Of a stretch of 5,716 bases of DNA, positions 1,218-5,716 are shown one piece after another (position 1 is the stretch's first letter; each line of letters begins with the position of its first letter). The notes below the pieces were generated by a model. The model searched no databases. It was given only the letters and a program-made list of their open reading frames with translations, and was not told the DNA's origin. Origin of the DNA: Escherichia coli. GTDB taxonomy: Bacteria > Pseudomonadota > Gammaproteobacteria > Enterobacterales > Enterobacteriaceae. The position numbers and the translations under genes were made by a program. The stretch is from the NCBI RefSeq assembly GCF_013315695.1, contig NZ_CP054357.1, one strand, 5' to 3'.

Positions 1218-2303
1218 TTAACGGCTCATACCATAATCACGTGAACGTGATGGTGCTGGTGAGGAATACGCACGCTGGCGCACTCTTTCTCTTTCCCTCT
1301 CCAGGTCTCTTTGCTTTTCGGCTTCAATTAGTCGTTCCTGTTGCAACTTCCGCTCCTCTTCCACCTGGAATTGCTTCATCATTGAGTCCAGCGCACCGTT
1401 AATCAATGAATTAAGCTGCATTACCTCATTGAGTTCATCAAACGAGCTTTCAACAAACGCCTTCAATTCTGCCCCAAGCTCATCCAGGCTTGGTGGTATG
1501 TTATCCCGTTCAGCTAACGCTTCCTTCAAGGTCGTTTTAAGGTCAATGATGCTGTCCCGTTCCTGCTCTGCTTCTAGCTTCTCCCGTTCCGCGTTTCTCC
1601 GTGCCAGAATTGCACAAACCTGATCAGCATTCATAACAGCAACACGAACGGGACCAAGATGAACTTCCGGTGTGCGCTTGATACCCTGTTCTTTCAGTGA
1701 ACGATGATCAACGCGCGACTGATGGCCGTGCCGCGCAAGGTGTTCATTCTGCACATCAGCCCAGTGAGAACGTAGCGCAACCAAGGCTGATTTTCGCTCT
1801 TGTGGTGTCTCACCAAAGCGTGCCTTTTTTGCACCTCCCCGCTCCGGTGATTTGCTGTTGGCACGTTTAAAAAACTGCTGCGGATCGCGTTCAATACCAT
1901 CATTAATCCGCTCGCAAAACATGATATGTGCGTGTGGTTGTTCCTTTCCGTCGATTGCACCTGGCGGATTGTGGATCGCGTACTGATAGGCATGGCGATC
2001 ACCAAGCTCCTTTTGCACGAAATCTTCAACAAGTTCTATCCGTTGTTCGCGTGTCAGTTCTCGCGGTAATGCGATCTCAATTTCACGGTATGCCGTCCCG
2101 TTTTTTCGTTCAAATTCATCTGCTGCTTTCCATAGCTCTGCGGGATTTTTCTTCGCCCATGATGGCATGTTACCGGATGACGAAAATTCCAGATCCTCCC
2201 GCGATTTGTAGTTCTTATATTCGCCGGATCTAGAAATATAATCAGCATGTTTTAAGGCTACGCCTTTTGCTCCAGTTTTAACTGTACAATGGTAGCTTGC
2301 CAT
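1218..2303 (-). CDS. mobA: MobA relaxase, MOBQ family (RSF1010 MobA-like relaxase domain only, 361 aa)
   Basis: The N-terminus MASYHCTVKTGAKG...HADYISRSGEY parallels RSF1010 MobA (MAIYHLTAKTG...KADYIQREGKY, catalytic Tyr in the ADYI motif). It also carries EIEIALPREL and the histidine motif HAHIMFCERINDGIERDPQQFFKR (RSF1010: HCHLMISERINDGIERPAAQWFKR), then VDHRSLKEQGIKRTPEVHLGP. The C-terminus is ER-rich low complexity. Comparison is from memory of the RSF1010 sequence. Confidence 0.9.
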   Translation of the reverse strand: MASYHCTVKTGAKGVALKHADYISRSGEYKNYKSREDLEFSSSGNMPSWAKKNPAELWKAADEFERKNGTAYREIEIALPRELTREQRIELVEDFVQKELGDRHAYQYAIHNPPGAIDGKEQPHAHIMFCERINDGIERDPQQFFKRANSKSPERGGAKKARFGETPQERKSALVALRSHWADVQNEHLARHGHQSRVDHRSLKEQGIKRTPEVHLGPVRVAVMNADQVCAILARRNAEREKLEAEQERDSIIDLKTTLKEALAERDNIPPSLDELGAELKAFVESSFDELNEVMQLNSLINGALDSMMKQFQVEEERKLQQERLIEAEKQRDLERERERVRQRAYSSPAPSRSRDYGMSR

Positions 2304-2474: not shown

Positions 2475-2921
2475 ATGACAAATCGTGAAGAGTGGTTAAG
2501 TGCAAAAATTGCCTATATCAACGGACTGAAATCACCGTCAGAGCAGCAAAGATTACTTGTGTTACTGGCAGAGAAAAAAAACCGAACAACGACGGATGAA
2601 AAAACGTTGTCCGCACTGATACGGGCAGAAAAAACCGCAGAGAAAGCAGCCGCAGCAAAAGCCAGGGTAACGGCAATAATAGCGGCAGAACGGAAGGCAG
2701 CCGCAAGGGCGGAACGAAAGGCGCGGGATCATGAACTCTACAAGGCCGCAGGCCTCATGATTGTGGCAGGACTGGTGGACAGCAAAACCGGAAAACCAAA
2801 GTTTAGTGCTGCCGAACTGGTAGGCGCACTCGCAGGAATCGCAGAGCTACCGCGCAACCATCCAAAATGGCAGGAATGGGAAAAACGCGGGAAAGAGCTA
2901 CTCACCAAAGACAGTGCGTAA
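2475..2921 (+). CDS. mobC: MobC / TraD-like relaxosome accessory protein (148 aa from the ATG at 2475)
   Basis: Divergent from mobA across oriT. SD GAGGT sits 4 nt upstream of the ATG at 2475. An Ala/Lys/Arg/Glu-rich helical region (AEKAAAAKARVTAIIAAERKAAARAERKARDHE) is followed by a hydrophobic stretch (LYKAAGLMIVAGLVD), which resembles the RSF1010 MobC pattern (..ERKNETRRKVLVGAMILAKV..) from memory. The upstream in-frame ATG at 2388 lies inside the oriT palindrome and lacks a convincing SD. Confidence 0.7.
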   Translation: MTNREEWLSAKIAYINGLKSPSEQQRLLVLLAEKKNRTTTDEKTLSALIRAEKTAEKAAAAKARVTAIIAAERKAAARAERKARDHELYKAAGLMIVAGLVDSKTGKPKFSAAELVGALAGIAELPRNHPKWQEWEKRGKELLTKDSA

Positions 2922-2949
2922 GAGCCTCCGTTCACGTTCCGGTTCCCTG

Positions 2950-3003
2950 GTGCTTCCTCGCTCATTCGCTCGCTACGCTCGGTCATTGAGACTGCGGCGA
3001 GCA
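2950..3003. other. ssi / primosome-assembly-site-like element (ColE1 PAS-like)
   Basis: TGCTTCCTCGCTCATTCGCTCGCTACGCTCGGTCATTGAGACTGCGGCGAGC closely resembles the ColE1/pBR322 segment GCTTCCTCGCTCACTGACTCGCTGCGCTCGGTCGTTCGGCTGCGGCGAGC (from memory), which lies in the ColE1 primosome assembly region. Its function here is inferred. Confidence 0.45.
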
Positions 3004-3078
3004 CAACCACCACTCACACACAGACGCTAAAACCATTGCCAAACGAAACACGGGAAATCACCCCAAACCTACCCGCTC

Positions 3079-3097
3079 AAAAAAACGCCTACAGGCG
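3079..3097 (-). terminator. Short hairpin plus T7 run just beyond the ori (possible rep transcript terminator)
   Basis: The minus strand reads CGCCTGTAGGCG followed by TTTTTTT (plus-strand A-run 3079-3085). The stem is only 4 bp, so this is weak. Confidence 0.3.
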
Positions 3098-3130
3098 CTG
3101 TTATCTGATAAGGCTTGTTATCTGGTCTCA
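3090..3130 (-). other. ori: ColE2-type replication origin (Rep binding and priming site) immediately 3' of rep
   Basis: The minus strand reads AAAATGAGACCAGATAACAAGCCTTATCAGATAACAGCGCCTGT, with CAGATAACA repeated. This matches my recollection of the ColE2-P9 minimal origin (TGAGACCAGATAAGCCTTATCAGATAACAGCGCC). The rep stop codon TGA (3128-3130) is the first triplet of this element. Confidence 0.7.
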
Positions 3131-4057
3131 TTTTGCGAGATCTGGATCACATTTTAGTTTTCGATAGTATGTGGCACGACTGATCCCTAACGTCACCCAC
3201 GGCTTCAGAGTTCGTGCCGATGTGGCAACGGCTACACGCTTTGATTTCTGACCTTTAATAGCCTGATTTTCTGATGAATTTGCATTACCGCCCTTACGAC
3301 CTCGAGCAGCCTGTACCGCGGAAAAGCCTTCAGGAGAGAATTTGCGGTAGGTGTATTTCGCAATACTCTTGCCAATAGCCCGACATTCAGCCGGAGAAAG
3401 CGGAACGGGAAGCGATGCGTTGTACATTTCGACACGCTGAATCACTGCATCAAGCCACGGTGAGAATGCTGGCCAGCCCTGACGAATCGCCCTGTAAGAC
3501 CATTTACGGCCCTTTTCGAACAGATACCAGTTTCGCCCCATCCCGTAATCTTTATCGACGCGACGGCGCGCTGAGGCGCTCAAATCAAGATAATCCGCCA
3601 GTTCGTCGAGGGTATAGAGTTCCCAACGCCATTCCACCACCTGCCATTCCTGGTGGAACGGATTTTTGCAGATCAGGCCGCTGTAGTTCACATCCGCGCC
3701 CAGTTTTTCACACAGCGCACGCTCAATCACGGCAGCGTATTTGAGCGCCGAAGCCGATGCATCCGGCGCGGTTCTCACCGGAAGAGTGAGCGCGTAGAGC
3801 AGATGCGCGTGCCCGTTACGTGGATTTTTTACGGTGATGTTCGGGGCCGGACAGTTCCGGTCGCTCCAGTCGATCGCTGCCCCCGTCCGGTCAACGTCAA
3901 AGGCCAGCCAGTGCTGCGCATGTGGCTGGTTCTGCTGGATGAAACGGGCAAGGATGGCGATATCTTTCGGTAGAATGCGAACGCCGTACGTGAAATCGTT
4001 CGTACAGTACGGTTTGTGCGGTAATTTTTCCCTGAAGAGTTGAAGTACGGCGCTCAT
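3128..4057 (-). CDS. rep: ColE2/ColE3-family replication initiator Rep (plasmid-specific primase), 309 aa
   Basis: Translation MSAVLQLFREKLPHKPYCTNDFTYGVRILPKDIAILARFIQQNQPHAQHWLAFDVDRTGAAIDWSDRNCPAPNITVKNPRNGHAHLLYAL... is near-identical over long stretches to ColE2-P9 Rep as I remember it. GGAGG sits 12 nt upstream of the ATG, and the cognate ori-like sequence lies directly downstream. Confidence 0.9.
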   Translation of the reverse strand: MSAVLQLFREKLPHKPYCTNDFTYGVRILPKDIAILARFIQQNQPHAQHWLAFDVDRTGAAIDWSDRNCPAPNITVKNPRNGHAHLLYALTLPVRTAPDASASALKYAAVIERALCEKLGADVNYSGLICKNPFHQEWQVVEWRWELYTLDELADYLDLSASARRRVDKDYGMGRNWYLFEKGRKWSYRAIRQGWPAFSPWLDAVIQRVEMYNASLPVPLSPAECRAIGKSIAKYTYRKFSPEGFSAVQAARGRKGGNANSSENQAIKGQKSKRVAVATSARTLKPWVTLGISRATYYRKLKCDPDLAK

Positions 4058-4155
4058 GTGTTAGGATTTCCTCCGTGTGTTACGACCCACACGCCCCTTG
4101 AATTTTCGTGACAGTCTTGGCGGATCGGCACGAATTTCAGGGGCGTTTGTTTTTC
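4040..4155 (+). ncRNA. Candidate antisense RNA I (copy-number control RNA complementary to the rep mRNA leader); boundaries approximate
   Basis: Plus-strand promoter-like elements TTGAAG (4040-4045), 16-nt spacer, TAGGAT (4062-4067), overlapping the rep start codon. A long imperfect hairpin plus T-run ends at about 4155. ColE2 replicons are known to use an antisense RNA of about 115 nt against the rep leader. With this promoter the transcript would be about 80 nt, so the true 5' end is uncertain. Confidence 0.45.
4094..4155 (+). terminator. Rho-independent terminator-like hairpin plus T-run (3' end of candidate RNA I; same structure in complement forms the rep leader stem-loop)
   Basis: Left arm CCCCTTGAATTTTCGTG (4094-4110), right arm CACGAATTTCAGGGG (4129-4143), imperfect with one or two bulges and an 18-nt loop, followed by CGTTTGTTTTTC (4144-4155). 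Confidence 0.5.
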
Positions 4156-4213: not shown

Positions 4214-4241
4214 ATTTACCATAACTCCTCTTGTACGTACC
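4214..4241 (-). other. XerC/XerD core recombination site (cer/psi-like multimer resolution site)
   Basis: The minus strand reads GGTACGTACAA-GAGGAG-TTATGGTAAAT. The XerD arm is identical to ColE1 cer (TTATGGTAAAT) and the XerC arm differs from cer (GGTGCGTACAA) at one position; the central region is 6 bp, as in dif and psi rather than cer's 8 bp. Accessory sequences would extend to about 4430 on the XerC side. Confidence 0.65.
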
Positions 4242-4609: not shown

Positions 4610-5560
4610 ATGAATAATTTTATAAATGAATGTATTTCCGCTCCGAGAATAAACGGCATGGCAGAATTTTTCTCATCAACTGCATCAGGGGAAAAACACA
4701 AACCTTTTAGACTAGTAGAAATAGATGATCGGCTTTTTCATTCTTATGATTACATTAAGTTTGCCAAACACCTCACAAAAAACAGCGGCCCTTTCGTTAA
4801 TCATTATTTTTGCAGTATACCATACAGCAAGGAAGAAGAGTGCAGATTAGGAACAACAGTAATAAAATACGCAATCACGCTAAACAAAAAATTAAACACA
4901 TGGTGTCTTGGTATGGCTGAGGGCGCAATGGCAAGAACCATTTCAGAATTATCAAAAGGAAACATACAAACATTAACAACCAGTCCAACAAAAGAAAATG
5001 AACATGCATTTTTTAAGTATAGCTCAAGTGAAAACGCTTATTTTATTTGCACTCCATTTTTCCTGTTAGAGGAAAGACTAAAAAATTCAAATCTTAAACA
5101 ATTTAATCAAGGATTCGATATTATAATAGAAGACACCACATTTCAAATGTACTCACCTAACAGATCTGGGCAAATAAACCACGTAAAAAGGCTATTAAAT
5201 AATGATGGTATTTTCATATTTACAGAAAAACATAGTTCAGAACATGATGAATATCAAAAAAGAGAAATCCAAAAAGATTATTCATTCAAACAAAGGTATT
5301 TCTCGAAAGATGAGATTAACACCAAAAAGGAAATCGTACTAAACACAATGAATTTGAATGAAGTTAGTGTTGACGATATGCTTTCCGCAATTAAACAACA
5401 TTTTAAATACGCATCAATATATTGGAATAGCGGAAATTTTTACTCAATCGCCGCCAGCAATTCACTAAAACACATATCAACATTTATAAATTTATTACCG
5501 AAAGCTGCAATTCCTATGGAATATGTATATGAAAAGCTCCCACGAAATATATCATGGTAA
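4610..5560 (+). CDS. Hypothetical protein, 316 aa; possible class I SAM-dependent methyltransferase-like Rossmann core (tentative)
   Basis: SD AGAGGA 7 nt upstream of the ATG; AT-rich. The central region has MTase-like motif spacing: LGMAEGAMARTI (glycine-rich, motif I-like), then about 65 aa later FDIIIEDTTF (motif II-like), then VKRLLNNDGIFIFTE (motif III-like). No canonical GxGxG and no (D/N/S)PP(Y/F) DNA-MTase motif. Stop TAA at 5558-5560. Confidence 0.75.
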   Translation: MNNFINECISAPRINGMAEFFSSTASGEKHKPFRLVEIDDRLFHSYDYIKFAKHLTKNSGPFVNHYFCSIPYSKEEECRLGTTVIKYAITLNKKLNTWCLGMAEGAMARTISELSKGNIQTLTTSPTKENEHAFFKYSSSENAYFICTPFFLLEERLKNSNLKQFNQGFDIIIEDTTFQMYSPNRSGQINHVKRLLNNDGIFIFTEKHSSEHDEYQKREIQKDYSFKQRYFSKDEINTKKEIVLNTMNLNEVSVDDMLSAIKQHFKYASIYWNSGNFYSIAASNSLKHISTFINLLPKAAIPMEYVYEKLPRNISW

Positions 5561-5566
5561 GTAAAC

Positions 5567-5716
5567 ATGGAATATTCAACATTATTATCATTTGCTATCG
5601 TAACCTTATCGCAAACTATATCAATAGGGCCTGGCGTTGCATTGGTTATAAACAATGCCTTTTCACATGGATTAAAGTCATCAATAAAAACAAGTATATA
5701 CATAAGAATTGGCGAG
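5567..5716 (+). CDS. LysE/RhtB-family exporter, N-terminal 50 codons; 3' end runs off the window (continues at 1..423 if circular)
   Basis: ATG at 5567, 6 nt after the stop of the 316-aa gene. MEYSTLLSFAIVTLSQTISIGPGVALVINNAFSHGLKSSIKTSIYIRIGE has the hydrophobic N-terminus and S-x-GPG motif typical of LysE/RhtB translocators (RhtB: ..[20 protein letters not shown]..). There is no stop before the window end, and the window ends exactly on a codon boundary. Confidence 0.75.
   Translation, partial: MEYSTLLSFAIVTLSQTISIGPGVALVINNAFSHGLKSSIKTSIYIRIGE

Follow-up and report, generated by a model that had tools for sequence, protein, structure and literature searches.

A probable ColE1-ssiA-type primosome assembly site as a regular part of the ColE2-type replicon in a small Escherichia coli plasmid

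The window, that is, the whole stretch of 5716 bases analysed here, is a complete small circular plasmid, and several 5716-bp plasmid records from E. coli and Salmonella match it with 100% identity over the full length. An ORF on the minus strand (mobA, 1218–2303) encodes a MOBQ4 relaxase (Pfam MobA_MobL, E 9e-38). The next gene is a mobC/TraD-like relaxosome accessory gene (2475–2921, plus strand; Pfam TraD, E 1.5e-8), whose start was placed at an internal ATG at 2475 of the ORF and which is labelled "conjugal transfer protein TraD" in the identical records. It is divergent from mobA and convergent with rep (3128–4057, minus strand), an ORF for a ColE2-type initiator-primase of 309 aa (Pfam PF03090, Replicase, E 6e-42; weak match to PriCT_1, PF08708). 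The cargo genes are AT-rich (GC 0.32 vs 0.48–0.54 in the backbone).

A core of oriT was found at 2334–2374 on the plus strand. It comprises the inverted repeat GTTTCTC/GAGAAAC (2334–2340 and 2350–2356) and then ACGTCTAAGTGCGCATCCCT, in agreement with the MOBQ oriT consensus, NWACCNNTAAGTGCGCCCTYNN (PMC3832669). In MOBQ4 plasmids, oriT is located between divergent mobA and mobC (PMC6856555). The MOBQ nick consensus occupies 2353–2374 of the plus strand, and the nick is predicted near 2369/2370 of the same strand.

The stop codons of mobC (2921) and rep (3128) are separated by a gap of 206 bp, which holds the element described below, adjoining a ColE2-like ori. The ori, TGAGACCAGATAACAAGCCTTATCAGATAACAGCGCC, runs from the rep stop codon (3094–3130, minus strand) and was delimited by its direct repeats and by alignment to ColE3, ColE9 and ColE2-type origins. 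A repeat search gave two direct repeats TGTTATCTG on the plus strand (3099–3107 and 3116–3124); two such repeats are characteristic of this group of origins (PMC6856555). Since its Rep has a Replicase and a weakly matched PriCT domain, and since a short ori with two repeats directly follows rep, the replicon belongs to the ColE2 type (class C theta). Directly after ori, between it and the element, the terminator scan called a terminator-like hairpin, AGCGCC-TGTA-GGCGTT, with a T run (3077–3099, minus strand). Its GCGCC..GGCG..TTTTTGAGC is kept in all the ColE2-type relatives aligned, and it is the probable terminator of rep. A 15-nt inverted repeat of 73% between the element and ori (2978–2992 with 3125–3139) was also noticed and judged to be due to chance.

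The original prediction had pointed to a segment of about 50 bp at 2950–3003, between mobC and ori, as closely resembling ColE1/pBR322. This is borne out, with the limits now set at 2950–3004 for a hairpin and 2942–3007 for the conserved flanks, and with a weaker likeness reaching 3033; counted from the mobC stop codon, it is 21 bp to the conserved flank (2942) and 29 bp to the hairpin (2950). When 2880–3140 of the window was compared with ColE1 (NC_001371.1) by BLASTN, a single significant match was obtained, of 2952–3033 (plus) to ColE1 1360–1282 (minus), with 65 identities over 82 positions (79%), 3 gap positions and E 2e-14. All remaining matches in this comparison had E values of at least 0.7.

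The conserved core of the element, GCTCGCCGCAGTCTCAATGACCGAGCGTAGCGAGCGAATGAGCGAGGAAGC (2952–3002, minus strand), is homologous to ColE1 1311–1360. It has 51 nt vs 50 nt in ColE1 and differs by six substitutions and one extra base, an identity of approximately 44/51 or 86% as counted from the alignments. The core is bounded by two boxes, GCTCGCCGCAG and GAGCGAGGAAGC, common to the 22 plasmid loci compared. The corresponding pattern, GCTCGCCGCAG-N24-32-GAGCGAGGAAGC, has a single, exact occurrence in the window (2952–3002, minus strand), while 200 shuffles that preserved dinucleotides gave none. The similarity is therefore more than the low complexity of CGCT-type repeats, the outcome that would have undone the prediction. 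A larger block, 2942–3007 (minus strand), which includes the 3′ flank ACCAGGGAAC, is common to F-type and IncF/RepB-type plasmids (BLAST, query 43–108 on large conjugative plasmids). The 5′ flank, TTTTAGCGTCTGTGTGTGAGTGGTGG (3008–3033, minus strand), is covered by the ColE1 alignment up to its end at 3033. This flank is closer to that of ColE1 than to other ColE2-type flanks and differs from all other ColE2-type sequences aligned, which makes it a probable recombination patch.

In the ColE1 record, the origin motif GGAAAAACGCC is at 1191 and rop is at 1612–1803 on the minus strand, so that the match lies between ori and rop, about 115–170 nt downstream of the ori motif. Published accounts put ssiA (n′-pas), at which the primosome for the lagging strand assembles in plasmids of the ColE1 type, in this same interval (PMC3167613, PMC2831885, PMC5935869). 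A second site on the opposite strand, like ssiB of ColE1, was not found in the window either by BLASTN against ColE1 or by family comparison.

Within the ColE2-type plasmids, the core is near-identical in ColE3-CA38, ColE9-J and a dozen more plasmids examined. The cores of ColE3-CA38, ColE9-J and ColE2-P9-type plasmids differ from that of the window by one missing A only and have the same orientation, whereas the outer-stem bases (GTGC/GCAC in the window, GCGC/GCGC in ColE3 and ColE9) and both the 5′ and 3′ flanks differ too. In the ColE2-type plasmids examined, the element always separates ori from the accessory gene for mobilisation and keeps the same orientation, and the ColE3 version of the region is present in 606 plasmid records. 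The element has the highest mean pairwise identity of the ColE2-type intergenic region (0.98, vs 0.81 for ori and 0.71 for the spacer). The distance from the primer motif CAGATAAC to the start of the core is 104–105 nt in 10 of 11 plasmids (105 nt in ColE3-CA38 and the ColE2-P9 type) and 93 nt in ColE9-J, while the sequence of the spacer has diverged.

In many other ColE2-type plasmids the homology to ColE3 sets in at query position 62, where the element has its outer edge, and in a subset of them it is confined to the element and ori (query 62 to about 231). These edges suggest that the element and ori act as one conserved cis unit around which genes are swapped. By these comparisons, the element is not a ColE1 intruder; it is a regular part of ColE2-type replicons. 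The original description, a ColE1 site inside a ColE2-type plasmid, was thus misleading insofar as it implied a foreign piece. The element is ordinary, being a standard and highly conserved part of ColE2-type plasmids.

The mosaic edges also raise the question of whether the element is a functionless relic or a recombination scar, i.e., ColE1-like DNA left at the junction of the mobilisation and replication modules. It does lie exactly at a mosaic boundary, and the ColE1-like 5′ flank at 3008–3033, unlike that of other ColE2-type plasmids, suggests recombination within or beside the element. A relic, however, would be expected to decay, and the element instead exceeds the essential origin in conservation; its changes are compensatory, and its distance to the primer site is constant despite the diverged spacers. 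We therefore give a relic only a very small chance.

As a regular component, the element is not limited to this group. The 161-nt query matched at least 5000 plasmid records, and the core is near-invariant beside the replication genes of ColE1-like, ColE2/E3/E9, Col156 and Rep_3 plasmids, in the F repE region of pO157 and in IncFIB(K)/RepB plasmids. ColE1-like plasmids have the element between ori and rop. A 3.3-kb plasmid of Shigella has it upstream of a rep gene, and it is also carried by a 2-kb MOBV plasmid. In IncF-type plasmids of Klebsiella and E. coli, it adjoins a RepB-type initiator. The F-type region of pO157 has two copies, one on either side of repE and on opposite strands, which share their outer boxes and the 3′ flank ACCAGGGAAC with the element of the window. 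Since the element is associated with replication genes and not with transfer genes, a role in replication is suggested.

For the study of a possible fold, the family set was enlarged by a pattern scan of one genome per species, which also gave many chance matches in GC-rich genomes and apparent cloning-vector contamination. After the removal of 16 sequences that were plainly unrelated, and the restoration by eye of three borderline ones, 50 distinct homologues were aligned. The coordinates of the hairpin were mapped by hand from this alignment and the window sequence. The predicted single-strand hairpin occupies 2950–3004 of the minus strand, and its parts were recognised by inspection of the alignment. 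The outer stem pairs 3004–3001 with 2953–2950 and is followed by TCG/CGA (3000–2998 with 2960–2958). The middle helix, CTCA(A)T/ATGAG, pairs 2990–2985 with 2965–2961, with A2987 or A2986 bulged. The apical helix, C-GA-GC/GC-GA-G (2981–2977 with 2973–2969), contains a tandem G.A and is closed by a GTA triloop (2976–2974). CCGCAGT (2997–2991) and GGAA (2957–2954) are unpaired.

In the 50 homologues, from the inspection of which the fold itself had been derived and part of which had been gathered with a pattern fixing both outer boxes, standard pairs amounted to 82.9% vs 74.1% in shuffles, and cells changed on both sides numbered 84 vs 28.5. The number of pairs changed on both sides was 8 vs 6.8, a value reached by 74 of 500 shuffles. 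The covariation score was 0.272, as compared with at most 0.065 when the 3′ partners were slid, and none of 500 shuffles reached it. About 90% of the non-standard cells are tandem 5′-GA-3′/3′-AG-5′ mismatches, and the tandem G.A alternates between subfamilies with Watson–Crick pairs (GA/AG vs GC/GC, TA/CG or CG/CG). A G-N-A loop, as a C-GNA-G triloop, is present in 42 of the 50 homologues. Between the window and ColE1, four of the six substitutions in the core fall in the middle helix, and pairing is kept or improved by them (from a G.A tandem to T-A/C-G, or from C-G to T-A). In DNA, sheared G.A pairs in tandem and triloops of the C-GNA-G kind are motifs of unusual stability. On the complementary plus strand they turn into C.T/T.C mismatches and a TNC loop (TAC in the window). 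Because these motifs are strand-specific, the minus strand appears to be the structured one, and covariation supports an irregular hairpin on it at 2950–3004.

The folding energy is no better than that of shuffles on either strand (z from +0.3 to +0.4 for the window, +0.7 for the ColE1 site and near zero for ColE3). As the validated ColE1 site also scores like shuffles, this value speaks neither for nor against a site, and the stability of G.A tandems and GNA triloops is probably underestimated by the nearest-neighbour parameters for DNA. The pairing of minimum free energy, GCTCGC/GCGAGC, formed by the CGCT repeats, was tried and rejected: it is 89% paired family-wide and has no covariation beyond shuffles (0.086 vs 0.084). 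It may be an alternative conformer.

Covariation alone cannot separate DNA from RNA folding, and the structured strand has the same sense as the rep mRNA in this plasmid and as RNA II in ColE1. The element could act as RNA, folded within RNA II or within rep transcripts that read through, or it could terminate transcription of mobC and rep, which converge on it. Against this, the terminator-like hairpin with its T run (3099–3077) intervenes between ori and the element, so that rep transcripts should mostly end before the element, which is therefore probably outside them. In addition, no T/U run follows the element on either strand, and the terminator scan calls no terminator there. Rfam gave nothing at the element, its only match being a chance-level one to PK-repBA upstream of rep (E 0.95). 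Finally, the homologous ColE1 site is described as a DNA signal (PMC3167613, PMC5935869). We regard a role as RNA or as a terminator as highly improbable, and the hairpin is considered below as a DNA structure.

The strand on which the hairpin would form can be compared with the direction of replication. The primer of ColE2 is ppApGpA (PMC9743546), and the AGA primer sequence has been located in the ColE2 origin (PMC5304414). In the ori of the window, AGA occurs three times on the minus strand (3128, 3123 and 3106) and not at all on the plus strand. Because AGA is confined to the minus strand of ori, the leading strand would be minus-sense, growing to lower coordinates away from rep, and the parental strand that it displaces, the template for lagging-strand synthesis, would therefore be the minus strand. 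Judging from the primer sequence, ColE2 replication would run from ori towards mobC. The element lies on this displaced minus strand, as a lagging-strand-template signal should, and starts 104 nt downstream of the primer site. The core is reached after 104–155 nt of synthesis here vs roughly 115–165 nt in ColE1. The displaced minus strand is also the one that carries the strand-specific motifs and is homologous to the RNA II-sense strand of ColE1, which is displaced there.

The original prediction had offered two uses for a single-strand initiation site, lagging-strand initiation and conjugative complementary-strand synthesis. The former fits, with the minus strand as the strand displaced from ori. 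In the latter, the element would serve in the recipient after mobilisation, where it would prime a complement to the transferred strand. The predicted nick is about 580 nt upstream of the element, which thus lies in the early-entering part of the plasmid, and ssi signals have been proposed for conjugative strand conversion in other plasmids (PMC7690428). The strand, however, does not fit. As a general rule, the inverted repeat of oriT sits 5′ of the nick on the transferred strand. Here the repeat is 5′ of the nick consensus on the plus strand, so the plus strand should be transferred, while the strand that is structured and homologous to ColE1 is the minus one. The signal is thus not on the transferred strand, as it would be in an ssi of a conjugative leading region, and the structured minus strand would be absent from the recipient before complementary-strand synthesis, which disfavours a conjugative role. 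Moreover, the element keeps a constant distance from ori and not from oriT, and it accompanies replication origins in non-mobilizable plasmids as well, which account for 1014 of the best 5000 matches to the element query. The conjugative use is thus very unlikely.

For the sequence-level features of the ColE1-ssiA-type family, the element has all three, namely homology, the two boxes and the single-strand hairpin. Because of the homology to ColE1, the conservation of the core throughout the family, the covariation of the hairpin and the ColE1-like position and strand, we identify it as a ColE1/pBR322-type ssi. It is likely, on this sequence evidence, to be a ColE1-ssiA-type primosome assembly site (n′-pas, phiX174-type ssi) that belongs to the ColE2-type replicon and loads a PriA-type primosome for the start of the lagging strand.

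Several classes of ssi exist on plasmids, and sequence cannot prove the class, so a DnaA-box hairpin (ABC primosome), a G4-type primase-only signal or an RNA-polymerase-dependent signal of Frpo type could also be considered. No DnaA box, TTATNCACA, was found in 2922–3130 even with one mismatch allowed, which does not agree with an ABC primosome, and no promoter-like hexamers were found in 2800–3250. The sole significant homology is to the ColE1 site, which is assigned to PriA-dependent assembly (PMC3167613). We see scarcely any probability in these other classes.

Based on the identification as a PriA-type assembly site, the following mechanism can be suggested, in which the protein steps follow the ColE1/pBR322 homologue and the published need of ColE2 for Rep and Pol I. 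In vitro, initiation of ColE2 requires Rep, DNA polymerase I and SSB and does not require DnaG (PMC4980987), so that a separate downstream site for helicase and primase loading is to be expected. Rep would bind ori (3094–3130) and make the ppApGpA primer on the plus-strand template. Pol I would extend the primer to lower coordinates and displace the parental minus strand, which would form a D-loop. Once about 105–155 nt had been synthesised, 3004–2950 of the minus strand would become single-stranded and fold into the irregular three-helix hairpin. PriA would recognise this hairpin and, together with PriB, DnaT and DnaC, load DnaB on the displaced lagging-strand template. DnaG could then prime the first lagging-strand fragment, which would run back to ori, while DnaB would drive the fork on and Pol III would take over. 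According to Takechi and Itoh in 1995, lagging-strand synthesis reportedly halts at the Rep-bound origin, resulting in unidirectional replication. At one IncFIB(K)-type locus, the orientation of the element relative to the nearby rep gene could be reconciled with this model only through the position of the origin of that plasmid.

The closest known counterpart is ssiA of ColE1/pBR322 (n′-pas, the factor Y effector site on the lagging-strand template), which has the same two invariant boxes and the same predicted helices as the window. In both plasmids the site is on the displaced strand, roughly 105–160 nt downstream of a Pol I-dependent origin, although priming is by the Rep primase in the window plasmid and by RNA II/RNase H in ColE1. 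In the middle helix, the element of the window exceeds that of ColE1 by one A, and ColE1 has a tandem G.A where the window has T-A/C-G. Between its ori and the site, ColE1 also contains a perfect DnaA box, TGTGGATAA, whereas the window plasmid has none there. In such a plasmid, the element, or direct binding of PriA to the D-loop, may be the only route to helicase loading.

For ColE2 itself, ssi signals were reported by Nomura et al. in 1991 (Gene 108:15; cited in PMC6856555, PMC6854812 and PMC7690428), and the ColE2 signal of that work is likely to be the element described here. Nomura reportedly also described ssi signals in F in 1991, and in 1983 Imber, Low and Ray are said to have described assembly sites for the primosome in the replication region of F. 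Unlike that of the window plasmid, replication of F is dependent on Rep/iterons and DnaA and is not Pol I-primed. One of the pO157 copies has a fully Watson–Crick apical helix (GGGC-GAA-GCCC), whereas that of the window contains G.A. The n′ site of phiX174, which we take to be the prototype PriA-dependent PAS, is presumably in the F–G intergenic region. This region carries GCGAAGC, a motif that is also found in F-type members and is analogous to GCGTAGC of the window; it has no extended homology to the element and folds far more stably (z −3.7), with a long A/T-rich stem. By analogy, the n′ site and the element may work alike, as a hairpin of single-stranded DNA.

As to the consequences of a loss of the element, PAS sites are dispensable in pBR322, and so the phenotype of a deletion is possibly mild. 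In pHW126-like plasmids (pIGRK, pIGMS31), loss of an ssi-like palindrome is tolerated, with increased copy number, multimers and instability (PMC6854812; bioRxiv 10.1101/2022.12.05.519187). These palindromes are a non-essential accessory of the replication module, in a replicon type unlike that of the window plasmid. By this analogy, a mild effect of deletion on copy number and multimerisation is plausible, and the predicted effect would be relevant to the building of ColE2-based vectors.

Taken across replicon types, the predicted hairpins could represent one fold of single-stranded DNA common to the ColE1, ColE2, F, Rep_3 and IncFIB(K)-type sites. Such a fold would have an outer stem and two inner helices, where Watson–Crick pairs alternate with tandem sheared G.A, together with a triloop of the C-GNA-G kind and the unpaired, invariant segments CCGCAG and GGAA. 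In that case the sites would amount to one portable cassette for the loading of PriA, passed from origin to origin and marking the boundaries of recombination; we consider this possible and, on the whole, rather doubtful. To our knowledge, the textbook view is that primosome assembly sites have no shared consensus, and a cassette of this kind, if true, would contrast with it. If absent from the older literature, the covariation-defined fold across replicon types would be the one mildly new product of this analysis, and, if undescribed before, it would offer a defined DNA ligand for structural work on the recognition by PriA. The structural model is otherwise a modest by-product and a possible guide to work on PriA–DNA binding.

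The main value of the identification is in annotation. With it, the map of the replicon is completed as rep, ori, terminator, spacer and assembly site, and an assembly site at this position would explain why no other cis segment of ColE2-type plasmids is as conserved as the PAS–ori block.

It should be added that the identical database plasmids carry no feature at the element, and that in some of the relatives spurious "hypothetical proteins" are annotated across it.

On the side of the origin facing the element, a terminator-like hairpin with a T run was found on the minus strand at window positions 3077-3099, and the alignment of ColE2-type plasmids showed that it is kept in all ColE2-type relatives. 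The hairpin starts within the final bases of the ColE2-type origin, and therefore the probable rep terminator and the origin overlap. The immediate origin-side neighbour of the element (3008-3033) is ColE1-like (TGTGTGAGT...), unlike every other ColE2-type plasmid examined, in which a small GCGG-CTTT-CCGC hairpin is located at this place. The segment 3008-3033 looks like a recombination patch.

Copies of the element and its apical motif were also present in other replicons. In the F-type replication region of pO157 (L003, NC_013010.1), repE is flanked by two copies located on opposite strands, at 1240-1289 (plus) and 4011-4060 (minus), of which the latter is devoid of outer-stem complementarity. 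The F-G intergenic region of phiX174 (L144, 2285-2394) contains GCGAAGC and CCGAAGCGG, both of them instances of the GC-GNA-GC mini-hairpin motif that also caps the plasmid elements.

Based on the pattern scan, short contigs of Streptomyces, Cutibacterium, Mycolicibacter and Microbacterium assemblies (loci L024, L031, L032, L054, L055, L041, L091 and others) were found to carry the element in a form exactly matching its enterobacterial ColE1-type or F-type variants. The presence of the element in these assemblies is most simply explained by cloning-vector or plasmid contamination. In some database records of related plasmids (H2-H5, from the BLAST search), a 'hypothetical protein' is annotated over the homologous element, an annotation that is probably spurious. 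In the window, mechanically called ORFs of 91 and 40 aa overlap with the element (2738-3013, minus strand, and 2867-2989, plus strand).

Elsewhere in the plasmid, a perfect DnaA-box consensus, TTATGCACA, lies on the plus strand at 2427-2435 between oriT and the start of mobC, and it is the sole perfect match in the plasmid. In the rep leader, a weak Rfam match to PK-repBA (4095-4143, plus strand) scored 19 bits, where the gathering score is 45, with an E-value of 0.95, and is probably due to chance. It should be noted that the match falls in the place occupied by the antisense copy-control RNA gene in the rep leader of ColE2-type plasmids.

The cargo (1-1200 and 4610-5716) is AT-rich, with a GC content of 0.32 versus about 0.5 for the backbone. 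It is made up of a LysE-family exporter gene spanning the window ends, a 238-aa ORF for which a Pfam search gave no match, and a 316-aa ORF whose methyltransferase/spermidine-synthase-like matches were all sub-threshold.

A cer-like XerC/XerD site, GGTACGTACAA-GAGGAG-TTATGGTAAAT, was located on the minus strand at 4214-4241. Its XerD half is identical to that of cer in ColE1 (L001, 3909-3938), whereas its centre comprises 6 nt compared with 8 nt in ColE1 cer. A cer-like site has been reported for MOBQ42 plasmids (PMC6856555), and the presence of the site at 4214-4241 agrees with that observation.
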